64,000 bases of DNA from Candidatus Lokiarchaeum ossiferum (GCA_025839675.1 CP104013.1:3169121-3233120), one strand, 5' to 3'. Counted from the stretch's first letter, positions 910 to 51,000 are shown. Program-made: numbers and translations. The notes: generated from the sequence alone by a model not told the origin.

Positions 910-1017
910 GCCTTCGTAGTGTAGTCCGGTCAAGCATCTCGGGCCTTCAAATCGTTTGAGATAATAGCGATTAGGTAAACCCCGATGACCCGTGTTCGAA
1001 TCGCGGCGAAGGCACCA
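910..1017 (+). tRNA. Intron-containing tRNA, probably tRNA-Glu (anticodon TTC); ~30-nt intron at 950..979 after position 37; CCA encoded
   Basis: The acceptor pairs GCCTTCG/CGAAGGC. The D-arm is GTGT...GCAT, the anticodon stem is TCGGG/CCCGA, the T-arm is CCGTG-TTCGAAT-CGCGG, and it ends in ACCA. The spliced anticodon loop reads CCTTCAC. The intron contains the AATCG...CGATT hairpin expected of a bulge-helix-bulge substrate. Confidence 0.6.
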
Positions 1018-1214: not shown

Positions 1215-1895
1215 TTAATTGACTAAATAAGTGATTTCCCGTAATTTAGGATGGATATATTGGAGTTTTTCATCTTGGACCAATGAGATTTTTTTTAAAG
1301 AAGGAATATTGAGGAGAGAATCAGGGATATGAGTAATAGCAGTGTATTCGAGCTCTATTTCTTCCAAAGTGTGCAATTGATCAATATTATCAGGGAGTTG
1401 GGAGAACTTGGGGGATAATTTGATACCGAGATATGTGAGGGAGGGTAAGTACATGAGATCTTGGGGAAGATGAGTAATATTACTTGAACTAATACAAAAT
1501 TTCTGTAAATTTCTTGAGTTTAATCCTAATCCAATTGGTAACTGAGATAAACGCTTACCTCCAATACAAAGAATTCGTAAATTTGGTAAATTTGATAAAT
1601 CTAAGGGAATTTTATTAAGAAAATCATATTCAATTTCAAGAATTTCTAATTTTGGGAACAGATTAGTTATTTTTTGAATTTCATCTTCAATTCCAGGAAT
1701 GGGAGAAGAATGATTTCCAAATAAAAATATTTTAGTAATATTATCAAAACTATCTATAGAGAATTCAAAATCATATTCTTGTTTATTAGCTTCCCACATA
1801 TCAAATAAATTTTTGAGAAAAATCTGAATTTCGGATGGAAATCCGGAAAAGGGATAGATTTCTTTTGATTCACGGTCATTTTTTTGCAATGTCAT
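1215..1895 (-). CDS. Leucine-rich repeat (LRR) protein
   Basis: The protein shows repeating LxxLxxLPxxLxxLxxLxxL units, for example LSNLPNLRILCIGGKRLSQLPIGLG and ITHLPQDLMYLPSLTYLGIKL. Its codon usage is AT-rich like the host. Confidence 0.6.
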   Translation of the reverse strand: MTLQKNDRESKEIYPFSGFPSEIQIFLKNLFDMWEANKQEYDFEFSIDSFDNITKIFLFGNHSSPIPGIEDEIQKITNLFPKLEILEIEYDFLNKIPLDLSNLPNLRILCIGGKRLSQLPIGLGLNSRNLQKFCISSSNITHLPQDLMYLPSLTYLGIKLSPKFSQLPDNIDQLHTLEEIELEYTAITHIPDSLLNIPSLKKISLVQDEKLQYIHPKLREITYLVN

Positions 1896-1970: not shown

Positions 1971-4900
1971 TTAAACATCGTGCTTTTTGTTATATTCTTC
2001 TAACCAATTTTTGAAATGCAAATGAATCCATGCAAGGTTTAGTTTTTTATTAATGAATTTTTTATTCATTCTAAGAAAATTAATCCACCAGGTCAACATT
2101 TTAGAATTAATAGCTTTTGGATTAATTTTACCATCTGAAGTTATTATTTCTTCAACATATGAATTGTTGACAATTAATCCCAATCTTACTTGAATTTCTT
2201 TTGCTCCTTTTTTGCTGTTAAACTTCCATTTTTCATAATAAGATGTATCGGATAAATGTCTCAAAGTATCAATTAATGACATCTGTGAAAGACTTAGAGC
2301 AACCAATAATTTTTTAAACTGATATCGACTGAGTAAAGGGGCTTTAATTCCAATATATCGCACATTCTGAACAAATTTCTCATCCTTGGTCTGATTGAAA
2401 TAAAAACGGCGAGTCGTAGAATCATCATAGGGAATATAAAGCGGGGCAAACCCACAAGCGAGATAGGCCAGCAATTGCAGTTCCTTTTTCAACGCATAAA
2501 GTTTGCCCTTGAATTTAGCCTTAAATCCAAGACATTCTAAAAGAAGCCCCCACAACTGCTTTTTGATTTTAAAGGTGGCCCCAATATCCAAGATCGCTTT
2601 GCGCGTGGTTTTTCCCTTGCCATCACCTTGATCCATCTGATACTTCACATTAATGGAATCATGGCGGAGGATTTTATTGAAGGTTTCCCGGGCTTGAATG
2701 GACCGAAGCGAAGGTTCAATGATCTTGAGATCATCAAGAATATCGCGTTCAAAGAAGGAGTCAGCGATGACTTTGGTCAATTTTCCTTCAATGGTAAAGT
2801 ATCGAGTAAGGAGAGTGCGGCGATCCAGCTGAGCACTAAGTAGTTCCAATAACTGCGAATAAGTGAGAAAATTACCAGAAAAGGGTTCAATCCCACCTTG
2901 ATAAAACTGCCGGGTAGCATACCGATGCCAAGTATTGAAGATGGTCCAGTTGCCGCGAAAGAACAGGTGACAAAAAAACTGCAAAAAGACATCCAATGCC
3001 AAGGTTTGTTGCGGAACAGGGCATGAAAAATAACGCGGAGAACGGGTTGGTTTGACAAAGAGAGATTGAGTATCCTTCACAGAAAAGAGAGGAGTCGACA
3101 AGGAGAGATAGATTTTGAAAAAATCATTAATAATTCCAGTGACAACTGTGGTGGGGCGGTTGGATGTTAAAGATGCAGTTGATGCAGGAAGGAGAGGAAA
3201 GAGGGCAGTAGCGGAATTTTTTTTAGTGGTAGTATTTTTGATCAAACTTCCAAAGGCTTCTGGGGTGCCTAGGCGGAATATTTTACGTAAGAGTTCGAAA
3301 AACAACAGGAAGGGTTTCCAAAAGGGCAGATGCAAAGGATGACGTAGGTTAGCATATACAGCGGTGGTAATATCGGAGCTCCCATCACCAAGAGTGGTTT
3401 GAATGAGGGATTTTTCAGGAGGGGAAAGAACTCGCCATTGGGGACTAAGGGCAACCAGAGTTTCTAAATTAGCAGAAAGCCAATCTTGACGAGTATCTGA
3501 ACGACCAGGCAGCAAATCGTGAAGGGCAGACGATGTGAAAATTTGTTCAAGGATTTGGGTTCGGGTGACAAAACCATAGTGTTCGAGCAGGAGTCCAGCA
3601 TGCAGAATGTGATTCACAGCAATCCATAAATCGTGAAGGGGCGGTTTAGTTCGCAATTTAGTGACATAGTTCTGAATGGATTTCACAAGATTCCAACGGG
3701 CAAGGGTTTTTAGAGATTTGGTACACCATGCGGTACAGGCAACGTAGGCAATATTCCGAACCATGGTATAGACATCTTGGAACCACCCCATCTGTTGAAT
3801 TTTATTATGGCGCGACTCCAAGAAGGATTTAAAGGTGAAGCGCGCATCCAGGAGTTCTTTAAGGTATTCAAGATGAGGGAGAGCATTACTTTTAAAAATG
3901 GGAGGGTGAGATCCTTGAGATCCGATAGTGACAGATTGGAATGCAACAGTCCCTGCAATGGAAAGAGGAACGGCAAAATCGGGAAGAGGTCCATAAGGAG
4001 TGGAACTTGAGAGCCTTATTTTCCCAGTTTTCCATTCGTGTAATAAACGGCAAGCTTCATCATAAGGGAGATGGAGGGATTCCATAAAATAAGTTAAAAT
4101 GAGAGCTTCATTGGCAGGATAGGATGTTTCATAGAGAATAACAGGTTGACGACTTGATTTCGCTTGTTGAGAAAGATATATATATGGGTGGGAATGACAA
4201 TAGTGCTGGAAGGCTTTTTGCTTCATGGCTTCAAAATATGCCGAGGGGGAGGTATGAGATTGGGAGCGAAGAGTCTTTTCCATTAAGGAATGAAGAAAAG
4301 TGGAAAGATCAAAGGTTTGAACATCTTCCAAGGTGGACACTCTGGCAAAGGGAGATATCAAAGGTCCTTCGAGGGATTCGAGGAGAGTTAGGAGTTCAGG
4401 ATCAGCGGAGGAAGAATCCAGGCAAGGTTCAGCAGGCAGAGAATCATCGGAGGGTTGGGATGGAGAAGACGCGGAGGTTTTTGAAGGGGAAGGATCGGAA
4501 GGGGGAGAAGAGGTGCCAGCGGCAGTGAAATATAAAGATCGAGAAAGAGAAGGAGAACGGGATAACGCAAATGACATCTGGGGTTGGAAGGTCATATAAG
4601 GCATAAAGGGGAGATAGGGAGAATAGAAGGCGATTGCTGTGCTTTCCGATGATTCCTGTAATTCTTCCCATTCATCTTCTGGGATGGGAGGTTGATAAGT
4701 AATGAAACGCATTTTTTGACGTTGTCGTCGTTTATGGGATTGAAAAATGTGTTTTTGACGGATTTTGTGTAAAAAATGTCGGTAATCGCGCAAAAGGTCC
4801 ATGAATACTCGAAAGGTGACATGAGTAAGGGTTAATTGGAGGGTGTTAAGAAAAGAAAGTAACTCCTGCGCGGACAAATCTAAGAAGGAGTTGTGAGATG

Positions 4901-7427
4901 GGAATAGGGTATGTAAAAGAGCATATAATGTGTCAAGGAGTTGTTTGCGGGGGAGATTCAATGAATTGAAAGTCCGAAGATACATTTGAAGACCATGTTG
5001 GTCAGAAGGTAATGGGTCAGATGGGGGATGATCAGATGTAGAAACAGGAGGGTCGCAGGTTTCCGCGTTTGATTCGTGGTTCACAGTATTTTCTGTGTAT
5101 TCTTCTCCATTTCCTTCATTAGTTTTTTTTTCAGATACTTCTTCTGTCTCTTCCTCACACTCTGACGAAGTGAGGACAGGAGATGAGGGTGAAATGTTAG
5201 GTTTGGAAGTTTCAGAACACTTATCCCCAAAGAATTCAGTATAGGATTGAGTGGGTGCAGTTGTAGAAGCTTCACTGTCATACAAAGCGGAAAATTGATC
5301 GATATCTTCAGAATTTGGAGGATTCAGCAGATGATCCTCTTCCAAGGGAGAATCAATGTCTTCAAATGGTGGCTCTATATCCCGAAGGGATGTTTCATCA
5401 ATTTCAGGGGAAGTGATTTGCAAATCAGAATCAAGTTCGGAATAAATTTCTTCGGATTGAGTAACGGATGGTGATTCTAAAGAAAGGAAATCTTCATATC
5501 CATCACTCGGTCCGTATGTATTCTCAGAAACCCGCTGTTGTCTGCTATCATCTTCAGATTCAACGAATGCATCTGAATCAGAATCCATGTTCGATTCCAA
5601 TGTGGAAATATCATCTATTTCGAATTCCTCCGGTTCGATAATGACTTCATCATCATGAAGGTCTGAAATAGGGGAAGAGGTAGAATCCTCACAATCTTGC
5701 TTATCTCCTTCGTGAAGAGCACTAAGAAAATGGGTTTCGTCTACTGCATTTTCTTTGGGATCAACGAGTTCTGGGATGGAGGATATATCATCGGTCGATA
5801 AATTTTCGATTGTGAAGTCTTCTAGAACATCAGACTGATCCTTATCCGTTGTATTTGGGAAAAAAATTTCATCAGAATTAATTTCAATGGGAATTAATGA
5901 TTCTGAATCGATTTCGGGATTCAGAGGAGGTGGATCAACTAAAATGGGATGCTCATTCAGGGTGGAAGGATCTTCGAGAAATTCGTTGGGGGCAAAATTT
6001 TCGTCATTTTTGATCATAGGCTCATCCAATTGAGTTTCATCAAAGGGAAATTCGAAATACTGTTCCAATTCGGGATCAATGATCAAATCATAGGAGTCTA
6101 CTTCAAGAGGGAGAGACATAGGAGCAAGCGGATCTTCAAGAGCAGAAATTTCTGTGGGGAGATTAGGATCAAGTATCTCCTCTTGTAGGAGATCTTCAAG
6201 GGAGACATCACCATGATTTACATTAGGTTCAAGATCATAGAGAATATCGGAGATTTCAGGGAATTCTGGAAAAATATCTTCTTCAATTAAAATTTCAGGA
6301 AGGTCACTTGAAGAAGTCATATCCTCAAGGGTTGCTTCCACATCTTCCCATGACATTTGCATTTCTTCTTCCAAGGGATCGAAGGAGGCTTCAGATAATT
6401 CACCTTGTAACAAAAGTTCTCCTTCTGGATTATCCGGATCGTCTCCGAAAGAGATCGGAATCCAATCTCCCGATGTGGTGGTGGAATCGGATTCGGAGAG
6501 GTTTTCCAAATCTTCGAGAGAAAGGGAATCTAATTCCGGTGGAAGCTGAATCATAACCATACCTTCCTCAGAGTCGAGCAATAGATCTTCACCGGGGAAG
6601 AGTTCAGATGAAGGATCATCAGTATCTGCTTCGTGTGGGAAATCATCACCAGCCATCCCCAGGTCTTCAGCAGGGAGAAAATCATTCCATGAATCAGATT
6701 CTGCTGAAGTTTCAATGTCGGAAGTGAGTTCAGGATCGTTTGCGGGTAAATATTCTAAGTCAGATGAATCCTCAGGAACAAGAAGGTTTTCATTGTCAGT
6801 ATTGTCCACACTGTTCTCGACGGAGTCGTCATGGGAAGTCGAATCTTCGAATTCAGCTGGGATCTCCTCGGATTCGGGAATTGATTCTTCCGAAGAATTG
6901 AATTGAGAATCGGAATTATCTTCAATTTCATCAGAATCTGATGCAATTGTTTCGTCGGGAAGTAAATTTTCTTCATCCTCAGATTCATTATCTCCATTAG
7001 TCACATTTTCAGAATCGCTAATGAGAGAACCTGGTTCAGTAGTGTCTTGAAAATCGTTACCATCTGCAATCTCACTATCGTCCTCGGAAGAAACATCTTC
7101 TTGCGCTTCTGATGGATCTGAAGGTTCCGAAGGTTCTAAAAGTTCCAAAGGGCCTTCATTCTTTTCCCCTTCATCATCGGAGGTCTCCTGCGAATCTTCA
7201 GAAGAATCAGGAGTTTCGTTAATCTTCTCATCATTGTCTTCTTCGTTATTTTGATCATTTCCTTCTTCAGTGTTTTCATCCCTCTCTTCTTCTACCTTTT
7301 CATCCCTTTCTTCTTCTACCTTTTCATCCCTTTCTTCTTCTACCTTTTCATCACTCTCTTCTTCTTCCTTTTCTTCTTCCTTTTCATCGTTTTCTTCTTC
7401 GATTTCGTTTTCGATGTCTTGTGTCAT
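1971..7427 (-). CDS. Giant (1818 aa) protein of unknown function: ~900-aa polyacidic D/E/S-rich low-complexity N-terminal half plus ~870-aa globular C-terminal half
   Basis: This is one uninterrupted ORF. The N-terminus carries tandem DEKVEEER repeats and long acidic tracts. Codon usage is visibly GC-richer (CTC/CCC/GGG/CGG codons) than neighbouring host genes. The gene sits 16 bp downstream of the ATPase gene on the same strand. Confidence 0.55.
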   Translation of the reverse strand: MTQDIENEIEEENDEKEEEKEEEESDEKVEEERDEKVEEERDEKVEEERDENTEEGNDQNNEEDNDEKINETPDSSEDSQETSDDEGEKNEGPLELLEPSEPSDPSEAQEDVSSEDDSEIADGNDFQDTTEPGSLISDSENVTNGDNESEDEENLLPDETIASDSDEIEDNSDSQFNSSEESIPESEEIPAEFEDSTSHDDSVENSVDNTDNENLLVPEDSSDLEYLPANDPELTSDIETSAESDSWNDFLPAEDLGMAGDDFPHEADTDDPSSELFPGEDLLLDSEEGMVMIQLPPELDSLSLEDLENLSESDSTTTSGDWIPISFGDDPDNPEGELLLQGELSEASFDPLEEEMQMSWEDVEATLEDMTSSSDLPEILIEEDIFPEFPEISDILYDLEPNVNHGDVSLEDLLQEEILDPNLPTEISALEDPLAPMSLPLEVDSYDLIIDPELEQYFEFPFDETQLDEPMIKNDENFAPNEFLEDPSTLNEHPILVDPPPLNPEIDSESLIPIEINSDEIFFPNTTDKDQSDVLEDFTIENLSTDDISSIPELVDPKENAVDETHFLSALHEGDKQDCEDSTSSPISDLHDDEVIIEPEEFEIDDISTLESNMDSDSDAFVESEDDSRQQRVSENTYGPSDGYEDFLSLESPSVTQSEEIYSELDSDLQITSPEIDETSLRDIEPPFEDIDSPLEEDHLLNPPNSEDIDQFSALYDSEASTTAPTQSYTEFFGDKCSETSKPNISPSSPVLTSSECEEETEEVSEKKTNEGNGEEYTENTVNHESNAETCDPPVSTSDHPPSDPLPSDQHGLQMYLRTFNSLNLPRKQLLDTLYALLHTLFPSHNSFLDLSAQELLSFLNTLQLTLTHVTFRVFMDLLRDYRHFLHKIRQKHIFQSHKRRQRQKMRFITYQPPIPEDEWEELQESSESTAIAFYSPYLPFMPYMTFQPQMSFALSRSPSLSRSLYFTAAGTSSPPSDPSPSKTSASSPSQPSDDSLPAEPCLDSSSADPELLTLLESLEGPLISPFARVSTLEDVQTFDLSTFLHSLMEKTLRSQSHTSPSAYFEAMKQKAFQHYCHSHPYIYLSQQAKSSRQPVILYETSYPANEALILTYFMESLHLPYDEACRLLHEWKTGKIRLSSSTPYGPLPDFAVPLSIAGTVAFQSVTIGSQGSHPPIFKSNALPHLEYLKELLDARFTFKSFLESRHNKIQQMGWFQDVYTMVRNIAYVACTAWCTKSLKTLARWNLVKSIQNYVTKLRTKPPLHDLWIAVNHILHAGLLLEHYGFVTRTQILEQIFTSSALHDLLPGRSDTRQDWLSANLETLVALSPQWRVLSPPEKSLIQTTLGDGSSDITTAVYANLRHPLHLPFWKPFLLFFELLRKIFRLGTPEAFGSLIKNTTTKKNSATALFPLLPASTASLTSNRPTTVVTGIINDFFKIYLSLSTPLFSVKDTQSLFVKPTRSPRYFSCPVPQQTLALDVFLQFFCHLFFRGNWTIFNTWHRYATRQFYQGGIEPFSGNFLTYSQLLELLSAQLDRRTLLTRYFTIEGKLTKVIADSFFERDILDDLKIIEPSLRSIQARETFNKILRHDSINVKYQMDQGDGKGKTTRKAILDIGATFKIKKQLWGLLLECLGFKAKFKGKLYALKKELQLLAYLACGFAPLYIPYDDSTTRRFYFNQTKDEKFVQNVRYIGIKAPLLSRYQFKKLLVALSLSQMSLIDTLRHLSDTSYYEKWKFNSKKGAKEIQVRLGLIVNNSYVEEIITSDGKINPKAINSKMLTWWINFLRMNKKFINKKLNLAWIHLHFKNWLEEYNKKHDV
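7273..7400. repeat. 24-bp tandem repeat (ttttcatccctttcttcttctacc; 3 near-perfect plus ~2 degenerate units) encoding DEKVEEER repeats at the N-terminus of the giant protein
   Basis: The repeat is directly visible: units at 7273-7296, 7297-7320 and 7321-7344 are near-identical, followed by degenerate copies. Confidence 0.8.
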
Positions 7428-7442
7428 GAAAGATTTCCTTCC

Positions 7443-10019
7443 TCAAGGGGAATGTTCTAGTTGTTGTCCAACCGGTTTCATAAATAAAATAATTGTGATG
7501 ATTTTTTTCGCGAGGATGTATAATTGATAAACTAATTTGGGGGTGAGTTTGGGATGTCTGTTAGAACAATGGGACCAAAGGCGATTAAACAATGATACAT
7601 AGCGATCAAATTGTTCCTTTAAAGCAATTTTAGCACCCCATAGGATTGTTATGTTGGGAATCATGTGATTTAAACAAGTGGCACTAATTTTTTGTCCTGA
7701 AGATTTCTTTTGAAGATAGAAATGAAGTCGGGTTCCCCATATGGATTGCACTAAGGAAAAAGCTTGAAAAAGGTAATGGTGCTGTAAACAATAGGCAAAG
7801 GAATTTTTCAAATGTTTCATAGTATTTTCTTGGAGAAAGCATGGATGATAATAGGGTTGTTGATAAAGGAGCTTTTGATAGTGCCAGAGCCAGAGAGTTC
7901 GAGGATGCAGGATTGGAGGAGGATTGGTGATTGAAACACCTTGGTCCGTAATTTTTTTTGTGAACCCAAGAAATCGATCTGCCGCATTGATCAATAGGAA
8001 ATGACGTTTGGGTAATGTTTGTAGAATTCGAATTTCTTTGGGATCAGTGCTAAAAAGAGTGGGGGATTGTGAGTCATTTAAGTTGAAGAGAATTCTAATT
8101 CCGGGAATCATTTGCACATTTGGAATTAACGACGAAGGATTTTGATCTGCAAAAATCATAGCCAAACCTCGGCTGCGATACTCGGTTAGGATTTCGTGCA
8201 TTAATTGACTCATTTTTTGAGTGGCATTGTTTTCATCCGATTCATGGATCCCTTGGGAATAAGATTTAGAGAAGACACGGTGACATTCATCAATCAGAAG
8301 GACATAATGGAGATGGCCTTTTTGTTCAGGAAGATAGGATTGAATCATATTGAGGATGAGAAATACCAAGAATTTTTTAATAGCTTCACTGCAGGGAGTA
8401 AGGTCTAAGAATATGGATTTTCCTTGGATCCAGTAATTGAACCAGGCGGGGACAAATGTACGATATGCGGTAGTGCGGATAAATTCTTTAGTAAGTAAGC
8501 TATCAATTCGATTTTCGAGCACTCGCAAAATGTTTTTCTGGACATTCGCACCATATTGATGTTTAGCTTCTGTATGATCGGTCACCACCGCATTAAAAAA
8601 GAGCCGGAGCGTAGAAGGAATTTGGCGTTTAGCAACAACGCGTTTTAGAACAGTATGAAAGATCGAATTGTAAGGATCACCCCGCCCAACTCCAGCCACT
8701 AGCATGTCTGCAGCACTTCGAAGGAGTTGTTCCCTATTTGCAACGGGGGAACGATAATTTTCAATATTAAACTCCCGTTTCTCTATGCCCAGAGTTAAAT
8801 AAGGGATCAATAACATTTCATCCCCATAGGTAAACACTTGATCTACTACTCCTTGATATTCATTTACCTGCGTAGATTTTCCAATACCAAGAATTAATTT
8901 TCCAACGTGGGGTTGTTTCGTCGCGAGTTCATCCATTAAAATACGTAGAAAACTACTTTTTCCAAATCCAGGTTTTCCAGCTACAATCATATGGCGTGGG
9001 AGATCATCGATGGGAATTGTAACCGGATTGGAGGTAATTTGGCTATTAGAAACAAAAGTTCCTAGATTTAAACGAGAGGGGATATCTATATGTTCTTCGA
9101 GAAAGATATTTTCGAGGGGATATGCGTAACTGGAGCGAATTTTGAGGTTGGAGGGAAAAGAGAAATCAAAATTTCGTTTAGTAACTTCTAAGGATGATTC
9201 CAATGATGTCAGATCCTTTAATCCATTGATCAGGTCCCAGTAATAATAGCTGACTGAAGTATCCAAAGTGCTGATAGTAGCAAGATTAGTTTTGGGTGAA
9301 TTATGTCTACTTTTCAAGCAAGAATTAAATGAATTTCTTAAGGAATTTAGATTTTGAAGGATTTCATCATAGTGATCTTTTGGGGGAGGATGAGCGAGAA
9401 AATCACACCAAAAAAAGATGCGAATGGAATATTTCTCATCATAGGGATGACTAGTTGTACCAGTTTTTTGAAACAATAAGGCGCAATGAAAATCCGATGT
9501 AGTATTGATGGCCATAGCGACAAAATTTGGAATTAGGGTTAGAGATGTATGAAGAAATAAATGACCTGTAAACTTAAGTTCCCAGATTCGAATGAATTCG
9601 TTAAGGGGTTGAATAGGAATTATGGTGACTTCTCCATCGAGGCCAAGAAGGCTTGTTTTGAGCCGATTGAGGATTATTTTAGAATTTTGTTCTTGGAACG
9701 CTTGGTTGGAAGTATTTGGAACGAAGAGTTTCATGCTTTTTTTGGTGATATCCACGATATATACTTGGCCATCTCCCAAGTAATCTAGTATCCATGGTGA
9801 ATCAGTGGAAGATTGGTTGATAGATTTTGCAGAATGGAATTTTTCTTCTGATTCAGAGGCAGATAATGGTTTGGTAACAATATTAATTACAAAATGAGTT
9901 GGAAGAGCAGAGGAATCCTGAGAATTGGGACAGGAAGAACCTGATAGAGTTTTTATCACCATGTTTATCGCCAAATGGGTGCTGAGAAGGACAAAAGAAG
10001 ATCCCTGAGTCCGAATCAC
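7443..10019 (-). CDS. FtsK/HerA-superfamily P-loop ATPase (DUF87 / VirB4-TrbE-like), 858 aa
   Basis: Walker A is HMIVAGKPGFGKSSFL and a DExH-type Walker B is HYVLLIDECHRVF. There is no obvious TM segment. Composition is GC-richer than the host genes. It lies immediately upstream of the giant ORF on the same strand. Confidence 0.6.
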   Translation of the reverse strand: MIRTQGSSFVLLSTHLAINMVIKTLSGSSCPNSQDSSALPTHFVINIVTKPLSASESEEKFHSAKSINQSSTDSPWILDYLGDGQVYIVDITKKSMKLFVPNTSNQAFQEQNSKIILNRLKTSLLGLDGEVTIIPIQPLNEFIRIWELKFTGHLFLHTSLTLIPNFVAMAINTTSDFHCALLFQKTGTTSHPYDEKYSIRIFFWCDFLAHPPPKDHYDEILQNLNSLRNSFNSCLKSRHNSPKTNLATISTLDTSVSYYYWDLINGLKDLTSLESSLEVTKRNFDFSFPSNLKIRSSYAYPLENIFLEEHIDIPSRLNLGTFVSNSQITSNPVTIPIDDLPRHMIVAGKPGFGKSSFLRILMDELATKQPHVGKLILGIGKSTQVNEYQGVVDQVFTYGDEMLLIPYLTLGIEKREFNIENYRSPVANREQLLRSAADMLVAGVGRGDPYNSIFHTVLKRVVAKRQIPSTLRLFFNAVVTDHTEAKHQYGANVQKNILRVLENRIDSLLTKEFIRTTAYRTFVPAWFNYWIQGKSIFLDLTPCSEAIKKFLVFLILNMIQSYLPEQKGHLHYVLLIDECHRVFSKSYSQGIHESDENNATQKMSQLMHEILTEYRSRGLAMIFADQNPSSLIPNVQMIPGIRILFNLNDSQSPTLFSTDPKEIRILQTLPKRHFLLINAADRFLGFTKKITDQGVSITNPPPILHPRTLWLWHYQKLLYQQPYYHPCFLQENTMKHLKNSFAYCLQHHYLFQAFSLVQSIWGTRLHFYLQKKSSGQKISATCLNHMIPNITILWGAKIALKEQFDRYVSLFNRLWSHCSNRHPKLTPKLVYQLYILAKKIITIILFMKPVGQQLEHSP

Positions 10020-10084
10020 CCTCTACAAGTATATAATTTAGATCTTTATAAAATCAAAAAGATGCAGAAGGAAGAAGATAAATG

Positions 10085-10339
10085 TTATTTGGAGGAAAAA
10101 AGGCACCCAGCAACAAGTAAAATTATGATGAGAAGGTCATAAGGTCCAAAAAAGGGGATTGATCGAGTAATCCAAACAAATTTAGAATTAAAATATAAAA
10201 TACCTATAATAATAACAAAGATAGTGACAATTTTTCCAAGATCAAGTCCCCTTCTCATAAAATCTATTCCATCATATATATTTAAAATCGAAGAATGAAT
10301 GATGGATTCTGATTTAAGAAATATCTGGAAAAAAAACAA
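10085..10339 (-). CDS. Small membrane protein (84 aa), hypothetical
   Basis: The ORF has a hydrophobic C-terminal half (IVTIFVIIIGILYF...LLIIILLVAGCLF). A degenerate paralogous copy lies at ~11590-11790. Confidence 0.35.
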   Translation of the reverse strand: MFFFQIFLKSESIIHSSILNIYDGIDFMRRGLDLGKIVTIFVIIIGILYFNSKFVWITRSIPFFGPYDLLIIILLVAGCLFSSK

Positions 10340-10450
10340 AAGGCAATATAAAAAAAGGCATTGGAAATAATTTTGTAATATTTGTTAATACTACAATATA
10401 AGATATTATAATGTTATTAAGTATAATGCAAGGAGAAGAGTATAATAATA

Positions 10451-10597
10451 ATGAAAAAAAAACAAATTACAATCAGCTTGGATGAGGATGTCATAAAAAA
10501 AATGGAAGAAGTGAGAAAGATAACCGGACTCCCAATCAGTACCCAAATAGAACTCAAATTGAAAGGATATATTGTGAAGAAAGAAATAGATGAATAA
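10451..10597 (+). CDS. Small ribbon-helix-helix (CopG-like) DNA-binding protein, 48 aa
   Basis: ATG at 10451. The translation is MKKKQITISLDEDVIKKMEEVRKITGLPISTQIELKLKGYIVKKEIDE. It is below the 60-aa ORF-track cutoff. A paralog lies at 11237..11398. Confidence 0.5.
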   Translation: MKKKQITISLDEDVIKKMEEVRKITGLPISTQIELKLKGYIVKKEIDE

Positions 10598-10598
10598 A

Positions 10599-11054
10599 TT
10601 AATAGCCAAATAATTTCCTTGAAATAAAATTTCGTTTTTGATATATTTCAAAATTGTGAATAATTTCATCCATTTCTTTTTCAATTCGTTTTACCCAACC
10701 TTCATTGGATTCTAACTTCTTTTTTTTGGGGATATGAGTTAGTTTTTTGAGATTGGAATCGAAATTTCCTTTATTTCGGAAATTTATCGCATCATTTTTT
10801 ACCAGTAAATCTAAAAGATATTGTACACTTGACATCATATCCTCACAGAAATTAAAATCAGGAATTATGGAAGCTTTCATTAGGACATATTCTCGATGTT
10901 TCCAAACGTTGATTATTATTTTCAATTGTCCAAAAATATCTTGAATATTTTCATTGTTTGCTTCTTGTTTTTTGAAAACCCGATCAATTACTTTTTTGAT
11001 TATATACGGGATTATAATAGTGATTAATCCCAAAATATAAGAAAGCAAGTCCAT
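10599..11054 (-). CDS. Hypothetical protein with N-terminal TM helix (151 aa)
   Basis: ORF with the N-terminus LSYILGLITIIIPYII. It is convergent with the small RHH gene. Confidence 0.4.
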   Translation of the reverse strand: MDLLSYILGLITIIIPYIIKKVIDRVFKKQEANNENIQDIFGQLKIIINVWKHREYVLMKASIIPDFNFCEDMMSSVQYLLDLLVKNDAINFRNKGNFDSNLKKLTHIPKKKKLESNEGWVKRIEKEMDEIIHNFEIYQKRNFISRKLFGY

Positions 11055-11236
11055 TTGATCTAGTAAGAAAACTTATAGTATATAAACTTTTAAGATAAAA
11101 CATTTTATTATAATTTAATCTCTTATGTTGCCTTAGAAACTATTATAATATAGGTAATTATAAGGATTTTTAAATACACACACGTATAGTATATTGGAGA
11201 AAACAATTTGATCTTTTCTTCAATTAGATAATGTGA

Positions 11237-11398
11237 TGGCAATGACAAAAAAACAAGTCACTATAACTCTAGATCATTCTATTGTACACGAAATGGAGCA
11301 GATTCGGGAGGATACAGGTCTCCCAATTAGTACACAAATAGAATTGAAGATGAAAGGATATATTGTCAGAAAAGAACATGAACCAATTGCAAACTAAA
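11237..11398 (+). CDS. Small ribbon-helix-helix (CopG-like) DNA-binding protein, 53 aa (paralog of 10451..10597)
   Basis: The translation is MAMTKKQVTITLDHSIVHEMEQIREDTGLPISTQIELKMKGYIVRKEHEPIAN. The two genes appear to be roughly three-quarters identical at DNA level (estimated by eye). Confidence 0.5.
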
Positions 11399-11589
11399 TT
11401 TTAGGAGGTTTTTTTTTACCAAGCTGTTTTTTTTTCTATATTTTGTTGAGATTACTCAAAAAACTTGGAAGTAATAATATTTAAATTGTTTGTGGGAATA
11501 TGATGGGAATCGAAATCATTTTTTCATTAATGCAGATAAGAATTATAATTTGACCCTACTTGATTGCTAATTCAAATTTCAAGATATTC

Positions 11590-11790
11590 TAGATTTCCTA
11601 GGAATACTGATGGCGAATCTATTTTGAAAAAGATAGTGACAATTTTACCAAAATCAAGTCTCCTTCCCATGAAATATCTTTTTTCCAGATTATTTAAAAC
11701 CGAAAGAGGATGGATTGAGTAAAAAGCAAAAAAAACTAGAACTAAAATTTTTTGCGAACGAAAAGAAAAAATGTAAGAAGATAATCCTAA
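11590..11790 (-). pseudogene. Degenerate, frameshifted copy of the 84-aa membrane-protein gene (10085..10339)
   Basis: DNA at 11631-11680 (aagatagtgacaattttaccaaaatcaagtctccttcc) nearly repeats 10213-10262. The translation is split into MFRIIFLHFFF...stop and a second frame MGRRLDFGKIVTIFF... Confidence 0.4.
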
Positions 11791-11793
11791 ACA

Positions 11794-12603
11794 TTAGATA
11801 CGGAACTTTTCTCGAAGTAGATTTGATGGTTTAGCATATTGATAGGGTCCACAAATTTTTTTGGTGGAGATGGCCGTTGTGGGGCAATGATTGTAACAGA
11901 ACCAACACCCGAAACATTTTTCCTCATCAAATTGGGGGTTTGGGGATAAAGTAATTGCTCCATAGGGACAACCTTTTTCACAGATACCACATTTGGTGCA
12001 TTTTTCAAGATCAACATATTTTTCACCCATATCTTTCTTTGCGGTTTCGGTCGACAACCGGAGAATTTTGCTGAGAATGGTAGTTATTAAATTTGTTCTA
12101 ACTTTCGCTGCTGGAAAATTTTCCATTGTTGGATGGGTGGATAATATTAACTTCAATTCGGAAATAAAGGCGTCAAATTTGGTTAATTCCTGCGAATTTG
12201 GAGAATTTTCATAACTTTGACCTCGTTTTATCATTGGAGGGTAATTTTCAGGGAGGTGTAAGGCAAAACTGGCAATCGTACGGAACCCTCGCTTTTTTAT
12301 GGCTTTTGCCAGTGATTTCAAAGTATTTCCTGAAGTGAATCCATGAGTGCTAAGAATGAAAGCAGGTTTATTTGATTGTTCAGCAATATTTTCCACAAAT
12401 TGCATGACTAAATGCGAGGGGAGCCAAAAATTAGTAAAAGTTGCAAATCCAATTATTTTGAAATTATCAAGATCAGGAATAGTATCATATTTTGCCATGT
12501 TAAAAAGTTCGAAGTCAATTTTTGAATTTAATTTGTGGACAAGATAGTTACAAGCAAGTTTAGTGTTACCAGATCCCGAATAATAGAAGATTATCCCTCT
12601 CAT
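11794..12603 (-). CDS. Flavodoxin-like domain fused to 2x[4Fe-4S] ferredoxin domain protein
   Basis: The N-terminus MRGIIFYYSGSGNT is a flavodoxin fold signature. The C-terminus has two clusters, CTKCGICEKGCP and CFGCWFCYNHCP. Confidence 0.6.
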   Translation of the reverse strand: MRGIIFYYSGSGNTKLACNYLVHKLNSKIDFELFNMAKYDTIPDLDNFKIIGFATFTNFWLPSHLVMQFVENIAEQSNKPAFILSTHGFTSGNTLKSLAKAIKKRGFRTIASFALHLPENYPPMIKRGQSYENSPNSQELTKFDAFISELKLILSTHPTMENFPAAKVRTNLITTILSKILRLSTETAKKDMGEKYVDLEKCTKCGICEKGCPYGAITLSPNPQFDEEKCFGCWFCYNHCPTTAISTKKICGPYQYAKPSNLLREKFRI

Positions 12604-12725
12604 TTTTTATCCTAATAACCACATTTGCATAATATCATTAAAAATTTTTGCTTAGGGGTATAATGGACTATTGAACCTCGAGTGCTACTGGAAAATAGGT
12701 AGTAAAAAAAGCATCAATGGTCGGA

Positions 12726-13736
12726 TTATTGATATCGCGATTGGCTGATAACATTGACCGTGCGAATAAATTTCTCAGATAACTCGTCGTTTCCGATAAT
12801 GGTCAAAAGAGAATCAACGATATTACGATCTTCACAGAGAACGGGAATGGCACCGTAGGTTAAGGGAAAAAGTGAAACGAAAGAGATCGGTATTACTATT
12901 TCGCTACCAGTATCAGAATCCGCAAATTTCAACTTTCCACTCGGATTACATAAGATACCAAAGAAATTATCTGGATCAAGACCAGAAACGCAAAGATATG
13001 ACACGATTCCGCCAATATTTAATGTATCAGCTTCTTCAACCATTTTTTGAAATCCAACATTAGCGTTTGCACTGAACGCTTCAACTGTGATGCTAAAATT
13101 CGCAGTGCTAACGGCCCGTGCATCAATATTTAATCCACTGGAGTTGACCAAACCATAATAATAGAAAACTGGATTTTGAATAGAATCTAGAATAGTGCTG
13201 ATATTCTGAACAAGTTCCAATTCTTGATAATTTTCTGAAAAATAAGCACCTTTAGCGATATCAGACCCCATTCCACATAGATAGATAGCACTTCGGACAT
13301 TATTGCTAAAGAGTTCAACTTCTTGATCTGTGATTTTACCAGAACCAAAATTATCATCAATTTCCTTCCGGAGATGATAAATACTCGATCCAATATTATC
13401 AGCATTCAAGGGCCACTCCTGGTTATGATCGTGAACAATAGTCAAAAGCGTTTGTTGGATTCGAATGGTGATTAAACAAATCTTTTCAAAAAATGAAAAA
13501 GCAATTATTTGGTCTCGAATTCCTAAATCATTCCAATTTTCTTCACTCGAAGAGAACGCAGCAGATGATATACTTGTAATTGCATTACTATCGAGTTTAA
13601 GGTCAGTGTTTCTTCCTGTTTTAGCAATGGATAGTCCATTTTCATCACTTAAAAGAGCCATAATTGTTGCTTTAGATGACCGTAAAATTGAAGAGAGATG
13701 TTTTACCAGATTTTCCCGAACGCTCATGATTTTCAA
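12726..13736 (-). CDS. Roadblock/LC7 (MglB-like) domain protein, probably multi-domain
   Basis: The N-terminal ~110 aa (NLVKHLSSIL...ATIMALLSDENGLSIAKTG...AITSISSAAF) follow the roadblock pattern. The C-terminal part is alanine/serine-rich with similar periodicity. Confidence 0.45.
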   Translation of the reverse strand: MKIMSVRENLVKHLSSILRSSKATIMALLSDENGLSIAKTGRNTDLKLDSNAITSISSAAFSSSEENWNDLGIRDQIIAFSFFEKICLITIRIQQTLLTIVHDHNQEWPLNADNIGSSIYHLRKEIDDNFGSGKITDQEVELFSNNVRSAIYLCGMGSDIAKGAYFSENYQELELVQNISTILDSIQNPVFYYYGLVNSSGLNIDARAVSTANFSITVEAFSANANVGFQKMVEEADTLNIGGIVSYLCVSGLDPDNFFGILCNPSGKLKFADSDTGSEIVIPISFVSLFPLTYGAIPVLCEDRNIVDSLLTIIGNDELSEKFIRTVNVISQSRYQ

Positions 13737-13901
13737 CTAATCTATAGATAATTAATATTGTATTGCGCGACCTTATTATTATTTCTATTGGCAGAAGTGA
13801 ATTTCTTTCAACAAAAAAAAAAGGGAAATGAAGCGAGGGGAGGGGTTTCTGTTTATGATGAAAAAAGAGAACAAGAAAATAATAAGAATCTAGGAAAAAA
13901 G

Positions 13902-13986
13902 TGCGGGGAGAGGGCTTCGAACCCTCGCGCCTCTACAGGACTGGATCCTAAGTCCAGCATCGTGGACCAGACTTGATTATCCCCGC
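13902..13986 (-). tRNA. tRNA-Leu (anticodon TAG), long variable arm, CCA not encoded
   Basis: The reverse complement reads GCGGGGATAATCAAG...CTGGA-CTTAGGA-TCCAG...GGTTCGAAGCCC...TCTCCCCGCA. Anticodon loop is CTTAGGA. The extended variable arm is typical of class II tRNAs. Confidence 0.85.
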
Positions 13987-20136: not shown

Positions 20137-20430
20137 AAAAAAATTAGTTGTTTTCTTTGGATGAAAGTCCGACATATACCAGTAAAAGAATGATTAATCC
20201 AGCACTGAATAATTGTAATATCAATTTATAATTATCCATAGACCAATTAGATAATTGCATAGGTAAAAAGACCATGAATTAAAAGAAAGATCGAATAAAT
20301 AAAAAAAAATTGGTACAAAATTAAGCTAACATTCTGTAGAGCTAAAAAACTCGCAATAATAGCCAATAGAAATTTTATTACAAAAAGTTTATTACTAATT
20401 TAAAAAAAGAAATTTGAAAAATGCTAAAAG

Positions 20431-20503
20431 TGGACCTAGGGGAATTTGAATCCCCGACCCCCTGAGTGCAAGTCAGGTGCTCTACCAACTGAGCCATAGG
20501 CCC
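20431..20503 (-). tRNA. tRNA-Ala (anticodon TGC), G3:U70 present
   Basis: The reverse complement reads GGGCCTATGGCTCAGTTGGTAGAGCACCTGACTTGCACTCAGG...TTCAAAT...TAGGTCCA. It lies immediately downstream of the 16S on the same strand, in the spacer position. Confidence 0.85.
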
Positions 20504-20588
20504 TATTGAAAATAAAATTAAAAATACAAAAATTATTACAGTTCTCTAAAGAGAAAAGTAGGGTCGTTATGACCCTACTTAATGGTGT

Positions 20589-22082
<1,494 letters not shown>

Positions 22083-30660: not shown

Positions 30661-33600
30661 TTGAAAAAATTTTTGATGAAAAAAAAAATTTTTTTCTACA
30701 TCTTATTACTCACAATATTAATCAAAAATTTTGAAATGGTAGATGCATGGATATTCCCAGCTCCTCCTGCAATTATGACAGATAAGCCATGTTACTTTCC
30801 AGATGAAAATATCAATATCACAGCTGAATGGAATCTTTATTGTGATAATAATTCAATTTTTGAGATAAAAATTTTATTTTTAGAGAACCAGCCAAATAGT
30901 TATAGTTCATTAAATACCATGTTTTCAAGTAGCTTGACAACCATACCAATTCCAACCAATGATTCATCGCTACACGATTTTGAACAAGTTTCTTATTTCA
31001 CAACAGTTCTAAATTCATCAGAATTATTCAATCTTTCATTTGAGAATACAAAAGAAATTTGGGTCACATTAATCTTCTATTTATGGATTGGAGGAGAAAT
31101 AAATGCTGCTTCATTAATAAAAACATTTTGCGAAATTAGTTTACAAAAATATGAACCATCCTTTCAAAATTCATTGTCCAATTATAGCTTCGAGATAGGG
31201 GATAACTATCTATTAAATAATACGATTTTAGCATCTGAAAATAGCAAAAAAATGTATCCTACTAAGGAAGTATTGTGTATTATTACCAATGAAATCACAT
31301 GTTTATCAAAAAATATGAGTTCATTAATCCAAGATGGCCAATTAACGCTTAATATCTCAAAATTTGGACAATTATCGGTTGGAACTTATAATATTACATT
31401 TATTCTAGACTTTACCAAATTCTTTTGTAATTCAAATTTAACATTAATTATGAATATCAAGGCAAAATATGTTGAGATATCTTCCTTAAACAGTACCAAT
31501 ATCCCGATGTCGTATGATATAAAATTTTTCTTTGATTTTCAACTATTAGATCAATGGGGAAAATCGTTTATAATTGAGAATTTCACTTGGTTATTCAATA
31601 GTGATTTAAATTGGAGCGAGTGTGAAATATTAGAAGATTTTTATCGTATTTATTTTGAATTTCCAAAAATCGAAGGTGAATATTATATTAATCTAAGTTT
31701 AGATAATTTCGAATATAACGTCCAATCTTACAGTAAATATTTCCATTTCTATAAAGAGGAAGTTGATTTAAATTTGTACTTAAGAAATATCACTTTAAAT
31801 CAAGAAATATCATTTTTAGTTGAGGAAAATTTGGGTTTTTCCTTGGAAAGCATAGAAAAATCCAATTTAAACTTGGAATTCTTTGATGGGGATATTTGGA
31901 TATCTATCGACTATAATATTATTGAAAAATATCCATCTATTATGAAAATTGTAACTTCATGGTCTATTTTTGAAAATTTTCCTCAGTTTTTACAAAATTC
32001 GTATTTTTATTCCCGAATAACGTTTCTTGGTAATGAAGTACTGCTTTCTGCAACTTCTAATATACTTACGATTAACCTCCCAATAATTAATTTTACTGTC
32101 AACTCAACATCAATCATTCTGGGACAAAAAATTCAGTTTCTTTTTGAGAATTATAGCATTTACCATCCAGAATCATATTTTTGGGATTTTGGGGATGGAA
32201 TAGGATATTCCACAGAAATAAATCCTGTTTATCAATATTTATTCCCTGGAAATTACTCAATTACTTTGACAACATTGAATTTTGAGGGTTATAATAATAC
32301 ATTTAATAGAGTTGGTTATATATTGGTAGATGAGGATAGAATACCTTTAGCAAAATTTGAAATCAGTCAAAATTTAACTATTCAAAATGAAACCATTGAT
32401 TTCATATTTACTGGTGATGAAGGAAATGGACCTTGTACGTATTTATGGGATTTTGGAGATGGTTTTTCTTCAAATGAAAAAAATCCAACGCATAGGTACA
32501 ATACACAGGGCAATTATTCTATTTCCTTAACTATAATTGACTGTAATCACGATTCAAGCCAAATTATTAAAAATGATCTAGTTGGAATATTATTCGACGA
32601 ACTGCCAATTGCAAATTTTTGGTTCAAAAATGAAATTTTAATAATTAACCAAGAAATCCTGTTTTTTTATAATGGGACGATTGGTAATGGAAATGAAACA
32701 TATCTATGGAATTTTGGGGATGGAACATTTTCAATGGAAAAAAATCCAGTTAAAACTTATAATAATACGGGAAGTTATTCAATTAGTGTTGAAGTTACAG
32801 ATTGTGATGGAGATACAGATCTAATTATTCAAAATGAGATAATTAATATTGAAACAGACATATTTCCTATTGCAGATTTTAATAGTTCAAACCAATCATT
32901 TTTGACAAATGAAGAAATCTTCTTTTTTTTTAATGGAACAGAAGGAAATGGTGTGAATTTATTTGAATGGAATATCGGGAATTTAATTTTTCATGAAAGA
33001 AATCCGATAGTCGTTTTCAATGCCTCTGGATCTTATTCAATCAGATTAAGTATCATTGATTCCAACGGAGATAAAGATTCTATACAAAAAGACAACTTTA
33101 TTATTATTTTAGAAGACTTGGTTCCAGAAGTTGATTTTTTTTGTCCAATAAAACAAATAGTTGCAAATGAGGATGTTCAATTTTTTTACAATGGAACAAT
33201 TGGTAATGGAAATGAAACTTATATGTGGAATTTTGGGGATGGAACATTTTCTACGGAAAAAAATCCTGTAAAATGCTATAATAATATTGGAATTTTTTCA
33301 ATTAGGGTTGAAATTACAGATTCTGATGGAGATACAATGTTTTTACAAAAAGATGACTTTATAATTATTTTAGAAGACTTTCTTCCAGTAGCGGATTTCT
33401 ATTGTTTACAAAATAAAATTATAGGTGGAGAAGAAGTTCAATTCTTTTATAATGGGACAATGGGAAATGAAAAAATGACTTACTCTTGGGAATTTGGAGA
33501 TAATACATCCAGTAATGAAGAAAATCCAAAAAAAAGGTATTCAATTCCTGGAAACTACACAATTAAACTTAAAGTGACTGATTTCGATGGGGATATAAAT

Positions 33601-48034: not shown

Positions 48035-51000
48035 CTAAAATTTCATGGTTTGGTTCTTTTTGAAAATGTGACTTTTATAATTGATAATTATTATGGACAC
48101 ACCAAGAAGAGCCAAAACAATAATAATTGGCAAAAAGTTGTTTAAGTTTGGAATATCGTAGTAAAGATAAAATAGAAGAAATTCACTGGATGATCCTCCA
48201 TCCGAATCCCGAACGGTTATCCACAATAAGGTAAAATAATTGATCATATCTGTTTGTAATGATTGATCTCTTATATTACCTGCACGAGAATAATTCAAGC
48301 TTTCTGGGAATGAAAAAACACTACGGTGAGAATTATCTTCCGAATTATATTCAAAATTCAATGTTGGAAATTCTTGAGGATTTAATAAATTAATAAAACC
48401 ATTATAAACCAAGATTGGAACTATTGACGCGACCACTGTCAAATCCTCATTCGAATCTTCAAAAGACACTTTTTCTTCAGTAAATACAGTTAAACTGTAG
48501 GGAGTTCCCAACTTTGCTGAAATAGGATAGATTGATCCACCAGATTGTGTTGTAGAAAATTTTACATTGGAAAAAAGAGATTTTCCAAAATCTATTTCAG
48601 GAATATAATTTTGAACACTGAAAAGAAATCTATCCGGAGAAAAATCAATACATTGAGTAGAAGAATTATCTTGAGTGAAACAATAAGCATATCCCTCACC
48701 GCCCGTAGTGATTTCGGATGAATTTATTTGAATCTTGTAGAAAAAATCAGAGAGATTATGGATACTTACTCTACCTTTCAGTTCGGATAGTCTATTTGAT
48801 GCCAAATATGAATCTGAATAGATTGAAATATATGATTCCAATTGATTGTTTGACGGGCTATTCACATATAAGGCAGGTTTTGATTCAATAGAGCGATTTA
48901 TTTCTACATTATCATCTGTAATATTAGAATACCCCTGAATTTGATAAGGATAATAATAGAACTCAAATGAATCTTGGATTATTTCGGAATTTTTTGCAAT
49001 TTTCGTTACAATCCTAAGTGCTTCTTGACTGGTTGCTTCGTTCTCTAAGAAAAGATTCAGATTAAAATGATTATCAATTTTTTCGATTTGATTTGAAAGA
49101 GGACTTTCTGTACCATTTCCATAAATGATTGTGGTGTTAATGCTTTCTCCAGGGATAAATTCATCTTCAAATTTATTAATATAATTATTAAACACGTTGA
49201 TTGATATATTCAGATAATTTTCTGTTGTATTTTGTCGTTCAAAATCATGAGATATCTCAATTGGATCAAGTGGCATTAAATAATCAACCAAATTTAATAA
49301 TAATTTAGAATGATTTGAGTAATAAGTTGGATCATTATAATATGAATTACCAAAAGTATGGTAATCTCCAAAAGCAACTATTTTTCCCTTTCCATTTTCA
49401 GTCGAATCATAACATGAAACAACACACTTACCATCTATTGAGGCAAGTGCCTCTGCATTTCCAGATGTTTCAAAAGAATTTCCGAACAGAAATTTGAAAC
49501 TATCAATATTTGAAAAGATTGAATGCTGTTGATCTAAGTTCGATACAACGTAAGGTTGAACACTAGCTCCAATTGAATAATCTCTAAAATTGAAAATATT
49601 TTTTTCTGTTATACTTATCCCCGAGTTAAGAGCAGAAAAAAGAGAGTTGATTGAATCAATACACATTTTATTCGATTTTGTACCTAAAAATAAAATTGAT
49701 CCCCCTCTATTAAAGAAGTTTACAATTGTTGTACGTTCAAATTCAGAGTAAGCTAAGATTGGGGTTTGTAAAACGAGCAGATCAATATCAGCTAACGAGC
49801 GAGGTGATAGAATTTCTGCATCCGAACTTGAAAAATATCCTGAAGTCCAATTTTGCATCTTATAAGAAATACTATAGTTTTGATGCGATAAATCATACAT
49901 CATATTATAGAGTTGGATCTGAGAATAGATCGGAGATTCTGAAGGATAAAGGTCATTAAGACCATGAAAACTTTCAAAATAGATCTTCTGTTTAGGAATT
50001 GCAATAGAGATATTAATTAAAACGCTATCTAATATTCTATTTGAAATTCTATCAGTTATATTTACAGTACCAAGTCTATTACCTGCAATGGCAGAATTTT
50101 TTATATGTATTTCCAATGGAAAAGATATAATTCCATGATAATCTAGAGAAAATTCATTTTCGGGAGTATTAAATTCAATTCCGACTAAGTTAGGTAATTC
50201 TATGGAAATATGACATTCAGAGCCAGAATAGATGGAAAAATTCATTCCTTGATAATCTCCAGGAAATCGTAATAAATCAAATGGAGCATAAGGAATTTGT
50301 CTTGGAAAAAGAAGAACTTGATTATTTACACTATCTGCCTGTTTTTTTATATTGCCTAGATAATCCAAAGATTTACTGACATTAATCAACCCAGCACCTT
50401 GAGCAGCACCATATCCTTCAGGAGAGGGTCTTTCTATCACTGAAGAGCCCTTGATGAGTGCATTACGAATGGATTCAGGCGTAGATTCTGGAAAAGCTTC
50501 AAGAAGGATTGCAACGGCCCCAGCTACCATAGGACATGCCATGCTTGTACCAGAAAGAGGTATATAACCAAATTGATTTTTAGAATTAATTAGTGGGTTA
50601 GCATAAGTATAATCCAAGGAAAGAATTGAATCTAAAGAATCGGTGGAAATGATATTTACCCCCGGTGCACAAATATCTGGTCCGATTTGATTTGAAAAGG
50701 AAGGACCAACACTACTAAATGAAGCAACATGATTGTTTATATCAGTTGCACCGACAGATATCGAGTATAACCCCGTTCCAGGAGTTCCTGCAGTATAAAA
50801 ATTTGGGCCGCTATTTCCCGCGGAAGTAACGACAACAATACCCGATTCAACTGCTTTCTGAATGGCCAATGTTTCAACATTCCAAACCTCAGGAATATTC
50901 AAGCCAAAACTCATACTAATAATTTGAACTCCTATTTCCATGCACCATTCAATCGCTGCAACTACATCTGATTCTTCTATAGTTCCACTCGAATTTGAGA

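Follow-up and report, generated by a model that had tools for sequence, protein, structure and literature searches.

A giant gene coupled to a P-loop ATPase

We analysed a 64,000-nucleotide stretch of DNA from Candidatus Lokiarchaeum ossiferum (GCA_025839675.1 CP104013.1:3169121-3233120), hereafter called the window. It contains a gene for a giant protein of 1818 aa that starts 15 nt past the stop codon of a gene for a P-loop ATPase of the FtsK/HerA superfamily. The giant protein consists of a polyacidic, probably disordered head of 795 residues and a basic C-terminal half, which ends in a domain predicted to fold like a restriction endonuclease. Tentatively, and with somewhat less than even confidence, we read the locus as a horizontally acquired ATPase-nuclease module, most probably for conflict with foreign DNA, with the acidic head as an electrostatic regulator. 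The genes concerned are as follows.

1971..7427 (-), giant gene, 1818 aa; identical to NEF87_002689 (UYP46404.1) of Candidatus Lokiarchaeum ossiferum
7443..10019 (-), FtsK/HerA-superfamily P-loop ATPase; identical to NEF87_002690
1215..1895 (-), leucine-rich repeat (LRR) protein, 226 aa, 75 nt downstream of the giant gene on the same strand; Pfam LRR matches only

NEF87_002689 and NEF87_002690 are annotated in the database as hypothetical or domain-containing proteins and nothing more. A first-pass annotation, made from the window sequence alone, had called the same open reading frame (ORF) of the giant protein and named the ATPase as its partner, and both calls were confirmed. Probably the unit has two core genes, for the ATPase and the giant protein, with the LRR protein as a third. 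Two TATA-box-like AT-rich elements, TTTTATAAA and AAATTATATA, were observed at 10030-10053 (-), 10-35 nt upstream of the GTG at 10019. Judged by their sequence and position, they would suit an archaeal promoter and a short-leader transcript of the ATPase, giant and LRR genes.

The longest ORF for the ATPase has 858 aa and starts from GTG 10019, and the database protein has 839 aa and starts from ATG 9962. To place this protein, we compared it with curated profiles. Pfam FtsK_SpoIIIE matched at 8e-7 with 29.1 bits (cut-off 24), covering only profile positions 24-90. The DUF87/HerA Pfam score was 20.7 bits, under the cut-off of 23.2, and the NCBIfam models CedD and HerA scored far under their cut-offs. 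With PADLOC, the best matches of the ATPase were mad8 at 6e-14 (263/314 profile positions) and HerA models at 5e-9; the domain content of mad8 is not described in the text of the MADS preprint. Sequence searches of the PDB gave insignificant matches only, including HerA-type, TrwB and EccC chains. Those of the HerA class were weak and consisted of SIR2-HerA/HerA-type chains alone (8j4u and related). Because the Walker motifs and the profile matches are present and the PDB matches are insignificant, we assign the protein to a divergent clade of FtsK/HerA-superfamily P-loop ATPases. The first-pass annotation had described it as HerA/VirB4-like. The FtsK/HerA part of that description stands at the level of the P-loop, but no VirB4-specific evidence was found.

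FtsK/HerA-class ATPases form rings and move along double-stranded DNA. By its class, the ATPase described here would be expected to form a ring hexamer with a central DNA pore and to translocate at the cost of ATP. It has more K+R than D+E, and its hydrophobic stretches amount to one, a marginal one at the C-terminus with two lysines.

The clade is very rare. A word-indexed search of 5.8 billion clusters matched the window ATPase (P0001) to itself and to one relative of 47% identity (P0002), and nothing more; an alignment search of metagenome and viral contigs gave no match. P0001 and P0002 agree fully in Walker A (GKPGFGKS) and Walker B (VLLIDECH). At the locus of P0002 (L001), the ATPase gene is followed after 23 nt by a gene for an acidic protein, in the same order as in the window. 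This acidic protein has at least 627 aa, 32% D+E and a net charge of -162, and is cut by the end of the contig. It was the one further acidic protein found in our search beside similar ATPases. The short gap in the window and the shared order in this relative support the partnership.

The polyacidic head

The head and the segments that follow it were delimited as listed here.

5043..7427 (-), polyacidic, probably disordered region, aa 1-795; charge profile, no Pfam match
7273..7373 (-), 24-bp tandem repeat; Tandem Repeats Finder, period 24, 4.2 copies, 94% matches, score 174
6399..6464 (-), conserved short motif DWIPISFGDDPDNPEGELLLQG, aa 322-343; BLASTP against the L001 acidic protein, E=0.004
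4758..5030 (-), basic, hydrophobic segment that adjoins the end of the acidic region, aa 800-890; it includes HKIRQKHIFQSHKRRQRQKMRF; composition
4398..4730 (-), neutral Ser/Pro-rich low-complexity linker, aa ~900-1010; composition

Residues 1-795 include 266 D+E (33.5%) and 21 K+R (2.6%), which gives a net charge of -245. Ser accounts for 12.3% and Pro for 7.7%. A run of 383 residues (aa 90-472) is free of K and R. In the Uversky charge-hydropathy analysis, all eight 100-residue blocks to aa 800 fell on the disordered side. Beyond aa 800, only the Ser/Pro-rich block 901-1000 did so, and the other blocks fell on the folded side. The first-pass annotation had described an acidic half of about 900-950 residues. 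Its polyacidic, Ser-rich and disordered character was upheld, but the region is shorter and ends at about aa 795 (nt 5043), where the basic, hydrophobic segment and then the neutral linker begin. By its sequence, the basic segment would be helical in character. The head had also been said to have no hydrophobic core. This is an argument from composition only, since aa 200-700 contain 26-34% hydrophobic residues, which are interspersed among the acids.

The giant protein is exceptional among the ORFs of the window. Its maximum net negative charge per 100 residues is 43; in the 40 other ORFs that reach 100 aa, this value is 16 at most. The acidic tract is therefore no general trait of the lineage as far as this sample goes.

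The 24-bp DEKVEEER tandem repeat noted in the first-pass annotation was recovered by Tandem Repeats Finder. It codes for three exact DEKVEEER units and degenerate flanking units, and tandem repeats make up only ~100-190 nt of the 2385 nt of the acidic region. Two Logan short-read contigs, L002 (window 7323-13929) and L003 (window 7357-10247), are 100% identical to the window. Both of these independent assemblies end within the 24-bp repeat, so public short-read data cannot show variation in repeat number.

The acidic regions of the giant protein and of the L001 protein are not alignable apart from the short motif. Its consensus is WxxVxYGxxPxxPEG, and the regular expression W-x-x-[VI]-x-[YF]-G-x-x-[PILM]-x-x-P-[DE]-G finds one copy in the giant protein and five in the L001 acidic protein. 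Six-frame translations of all 13 fetched loci and of the window gave no other occurrence. Functional disordered regions typically show this pattern, in which the sequence drifts but composition, length and one docking-type motif are retained. In both length and charge, the head ranks among the most extreme acidic disordered regions known to us in a prokaryotic protein. It has no match to DNA-mimic anti-restriction or chaperone families, nor to any curated family in Pfam, NCBIfam, PADLOC or PHROGs. The DNA-mimic role proposed in the first-pass annotation might be read from the charge alone.

A restriction-endonuclease-like domain at the C-terminus

No curated family in Pfam, NCBIfam, PADLOC or PHROGs matched aa 800-1818. 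The C-terminal half carries a net charge of +30 and was divided into the following parts.

2826..4250 (-), mostly alpha-helical region, aa 1060-1534; common to the longer members P0004, P0010, P0011 and P0014; AlphaFold2 predicted local distance difference test (pLDDT) mostly 30-65
2328..2825 (-), restriction-endonuclease-like (PD-(D/E)xK fold) domain, aa ~1535-1700; model and structural neighbours
1974..2327 (-), conserved C-terminal helical subdomain, aa ~1701-1818; motifs IG..APLL, IQ.AFGL and WW.N; GC content at third codon positions (GC3) ~0.22

AlphaFold2 on aa 1060-1818 (759 residues) gave a pLDDT of 58.6 and was confident only in the last ~280 residues; Foldseek with this model gave no significant match. 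The model of aa 1519-1818, built with a 12-sequence alignment, had a pLDDT of 90.4 and a predicted template modelling score of 0.88. The alpha-beta-beta-beta-alpha-beta core of the PD-(D/E)xK fold is present in the model of the C-terminal domain. When Foldseek was run against viral models and the PDB, nucleases ranked first with weak E-values. The structural neighbours include the defence nucleases Cap4, Can2, Card1 and Upx.

Four residues of the domain are invariant in every sequence covering them: D1614 (11/11), E1631 (12/12), Y1644 and K1648. The model puts D1614 at the start of a core strand, E1631 in the core strand after it, and Y1644 and K1648 in the helix that comes next. The position of the canonical (D/E)xK lysine is occupied by an invariant leucine (L1633), so either the lysine of the active site has been relocated or the site is inactive. 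From the model, the domain folds like a restriction endonuclease and is a candidate nuclease. Because the conserved domain has this fold, a DNA transaction, as the first-pass annotation had suggested, is a very probable function. The same model argues against an enzyme unrelated to DNA at the C-terminus.

A small family with two kinds of neighbour

To find relatives of aa 800-1818, we searched 1.84 billion cluster representatives exhaustively with HMMER. Only 11 other proteins were found at E<=0.001. The module common to them comprises the ~280 C-terminal residues and carries the motifs LDIG, E.LG, YG..K, P(I/V)YI, IG.APLL, IQ.AFGL and WW.N. Longer relatives additionally share the helical region upstream of this module. 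Two members are named by organism (Candidatus Harpocratesius repetitus / Lokiarchaeota), and one more locus is labelled uncultured archaeon. A search for related loci with the four closest sequences found one genome locus (L004) and had no match in viral or metagenome contigs. An Asgard defence survey makes no mention of HerA or of the family of the giant protein.

Five of the nine loci with a readable downstream flank have an LRR-type gene directly downstream of the family member. These are the window (1215..1895), L006, L008, L009/L010 and L011/L013. The downstream gene of L011 has no Pfam match, but it is homologous to the LRR protein of the window (E=5e-12). No LRR gene was found in L004, L005, L007 and L012. 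Candidatus Harpocratesius repetitus (GCA_021498095.1) has two short paralogues of 410 and 330 aa at distant sites (L009 10001-13067 and L011 10001-12293), each with an LRR-type gene ~200 nt after it. Because both paralogues have this neighbour, a conserved two-gene unit that is independent of the ATPase is suggested.

No ATPase gene lies upstream of the family member in L004, L005, L006, L009, L011 and L012, and L007 and L008 have too little flank. None of the family homologues at loci without the ATPase has an acidic N-terminus. The acidic region occurs in the ATPase-linked versions only, that is, in the giant protein and at L001, so it goes with the ATPase and not with the nuclease-like family itself. 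Together with the low charge of the neighbouring proteins in the window, this shows that the acidic tract is general neither to the neighbouring proteome nor to the protein's own family.

Composition and origin of the cassette

The window has ~29% GC overall and contains an archaeal 16S rRNA gene. One segment of it differs clearly from its surroundings.

2400..10020 (no strand), compositionally foreign segment; GC ~0.38-0.46 against ~0.25-0.33 around it

The ATPase and giant genes have a GC3 of 0.33-0.35, compared with 0.17-0.31 (mostly 0.20-0.25) in the other 39 ORFs of the window. Their C content at third codon positions is 0.21-0.22, compared with 0.05-0.20 (mostly ~0.10) in the same ORFs. 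The L001 cassette, at 44-49% GC, is higher still than that of the window. Inside the giant gene, GC3 drops abruptly from ~0.45 to ~0.22 near aa 1690 (aa ~1680-1700, 2328-2400), within the conserved domain. Composition is host-like in the LRR gene and in the last ~120 codons of the giant gene, and foreign-like in the rest of the giant gene and in the ATPase gene. The drop may be a recombination junction, perhaps with a resident paralogue. Identity to the homologues is equal on both sides of this point.

No integrase, recombinase, capsid, replication or conjugation gene was found in 1-16 kb of the window, and no repeat resembling an attachment (att) site was found bracketing the foreign segment. 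Neither protein has relatives in IMG/VR viral contigs, INPHARED phages or PLSDB plasmids, including by tblastn against phages and plasmids. No convincing membrane segment was found in the ATPase or the giant protein. The first-pass annotation had suggested a function associated with DNA transfer as one possibility. We found no support for this or for a mobile element in the form of an integrase, of phage, plasmid or viral matches, or of membrane segments. The general direction of the annotation, a DNA-related function coupled to an ATPase, holds, and as a whole its interpretation is partly supported. It had not noted the nuclease-like domain, the LRR gene as a partner or the foreign composition of the cassette. 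We also considered export of a nuclease toxin by an FtsK-family ATPase through secretion or a type-VII-like route and rejected it, since the giant protein has neither a hydrophobic segment nor a signal-like N-terminus, and the ATPase has only its one marginal stretch.

Comparison with known systems

HerA-DUF4297 combines a HerA hexamer with a PD-(D/E)xK-type nuclease; each is nearly inactive singly, and both are activated by assembly into one complex (PMC11291478). Complex formation was universal among 16 nuclease-NTPase systems that have been surveyed (10.1101/2025.07.10.664194). Like HerA-DUF4297 and related pairs, the locus is a two-gene unit of an FtsK/HerA-class ATPase and a PD-(D/E)xK-fold protein. 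However, it does not belong to HerA-DUF4297, since its giant protein shows no sequence match to DUF4297, a Cap4-like domain; nor does a curated HerA model score above its cut-off. The partner protein has 1818 aa rather than a few hundred, with the polyacidic head of 795 aa and a helical middle of ~700 aa. In contrast to HerA-DUF4297, another residue stands in place of the canonical ExK lysine, an LRR gene adjoins the pair and the host is an Asgard archaeon. By analogy, the locus would work most like the nuclease-NTPase defence pairs.

Compared with type II restriction endonucleases (the NgoMIV/Cfr10I/Bse634I/SgrAI/AgeI/BsaWI group and other PD-(D/E)xK enzymes), identity is 7-11%. Unlike type II enzymes, the giant protein has no methyltransferase partner, and its nuclease-like domain stands at the end of a giant multidomain protein. 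The locus is not of the nucleotide-binding LRR (NLR) type either, because the LRR protein comes without a STAND NTPase: the partner ATPase is not a STAND NTPase, and the LRR protein has no NACHT or NB-ARC domain.

Tracts of D and E have been shown to autoinhibit eukaryotic DNA-binding proteins (PMC10250230). Like these tracts, the head is a disordered polyanion in cis to a basic, DNA-directed module. Such tracts typically have tens of residues, whereas the head has 795 residues and a net charge of -245, is archaeal, and has a link to DNA binding that is predicted only. Further examples of acidic tracts are the acidic tails of HMGB1, SSB and T7 gp2.5. Ocr and ArdA are small folded DNA-mimic anti-restriction proteins whose charges copy B-form DNA. 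What the head has in common with them is a dense negative charge and a connection to DNA conflict systems. Unlike them, it is predicted to be disordered and belongs to the same polypeptide as the nuclease-like domain. Since it is not a small folded protein and no such family matches it, it does not count as a DNA mimic of the Ocr/ArdA type.

Proposed mechanism and alternatives

By analogy with the systems above, we infer a nuclease from the fold, a complex from the neighbouring genes, a defence role, and an autoinhibitor or DNA mimic from the charge. The ATPase and the C-terminal half of the giant protein would form a DNA-directed complex, as in HerA-DUF4297 and other nuclease-NTPase pairs, and complex assembly together with ATP hydrolysis would control cleavage. 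The restriction-endonuclease-fold domain would likely be the part that cuts or holds DNA. The acidic head could act in cis as a disordered electrostatic competitor of DNA, occupying basic surfaces of its own C-terminal half, of the ATPase, or of both. In this way the nuclease and the motor would be kept off host DNA until the head is displaced. The WxxVxYGxxPxxPEG motif may be a docking site.

Foreign composition and the nearby tRNA genes are the only observations that point to a remnant of a mobile element or virus. Here the ATPase would pump or segregate element DNA, the giant protein would be a DNA-processing partner (a nickase, or terminase-like or TnsA-like), and the head would be an anti-host DNA mimic or a decoy for histones or nucleoid proteins. 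We consider this unlikely, because the flanks lack integrase, capsid, replication and conjugation genes and a bracketing repeat, the viral, phage and plasmid collections hold no relatives, membrane segments are missing, and the other family members occur in ordinary chromosomal contexts. It is also rather doubtful that the nuclease-like domain is catalytically dead and that the family is a nucleic-acid-binding or scaffold partner of LRR proteins in signalling or regulation in Lokiarchaeia. The ATPase and head would then be a lineage-specific add-on with no defence role. Invariant D, E, K and Y at active-site-like positions, at 26-41% identity, would be unusual for a dead enzyme, and the physical coupling to a DNA-motor-type ATPase also weighs against a scaffold.

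Two further explanations concern the head itself. It might bind basic proteins (archaeal or viral histones and other DNA-binding proteins) as a platform, chaperone or sponge, and not regulate its own nuclease. The motor and nuclease would then act on protein-coated DNA once these proteins have been removed from it. Its extreme negative charge interspersed with hydrophobics does resemble acidic histone-chaperone and activation-domain sequences, and the conserved short motif suggests a protein-protein docking site. Nevertheless, this evidence is purely compositional, no chaperone-family homology was found and the operon has no histone or nucleoid gene, which makes such a role quite improbable. 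Neutral low-complexity growth of a tolerated N-terminal extension by repeat slippage is very improbable. The nearly perfect 24-bp repeat at the 5' end shows recent slippage, and the region's two known examples show no sequence conservation. However, length (at least 627 and 795 aa), acidity (32-33.5% D+E) and motif are all kept between the two, though their ATPases are only 47% identical; the tandem repeats cover a small part of the region; and the K/R-free run would be hard to keep without selection. If the head were a neutral expansion, the finding would shrink to a new but ordinary nuclease-NTPase pair.

Returning to the horizontally acquired ATPase-nuclease module with an electrostatic regulator, a bolder version of it would make the 795-residue polyanion a true in-cis mimic of nucleic acid that threads or plugs the motor and masks the nuclease. 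The motor-nuclease would then fire only once foreign DNA, or a viral DNA-binding protein sensed via the LRR partner, displaced it. We regard this version as improbable. If true, it would be an archaeal system using the autoinhibition logic of D/E tracts that is otherwise documented in eukaryotic DNA-binding proteins, and its nuclease would come from a family known up to now chiefly from Lokiarchaeia.

Among prokaryotic immune systems, ATPase-nuclease pairs form a major class that continues to grow, and to our knowledge the characterised ones are almost all bacterial. The regulation of DNA-binding modules by long, charged, disordered regions is considered a typically eukaryotic trait. The class of architecture is already known. 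What is new here is, most of all, the polyacidic head of 795 residues, which is present only with the ATPase. Also new are the very rare clade of FtsK/HerA-type ATPases and a restriction-endonuclease-fold family that has so far turned up in archaeal sequences only (Lokiarchaeota wherever the organism is named) and is recurrently paired with LRR proteins. Because the host is a cultured Asgard archaeon, the role of the acidic region can be tested in a close prokaryotic relative of eukaryotes.

Other features of the window

Upstream of the ATPase gene lies a duplicated small module. It includes a 90-nt direct repeat (10217-10306 and 11629-11718, 76% identity), which covers the start of a small membrane-protein ORF. 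The same module has paralogous ribbon-helix-helix-like ORFs of 48 and 54 aa at 10451-10597 (+) and 11233-11397 (+), which begin with MKKKQITISLDEDV and MTKKQVTITLDHSI.

A tRNA match of 105 nt at 910-1014 (+) sits between tRNA-Asn (635-710) and the LRR gene. It scored 43.1 bits, above the Rfam gathering score, was missed by ARAGORN and was not listed by the whole-window gathering run. It is probably an intron-containing tRNA. The 16S rRNA gene (20430-22082, -) is followed by tRNA-Ala. Since no 23S rRNA gene was found in the whole 64-kb window, the rRNA genes appear to be unlinked here. Two very large ORFs, at 30661-34800 (+) with 1379 aa and at 48035-51883 (-) with 1282 aa, are low in K+R (5.9-6.9%), and the second has 12% Ser.

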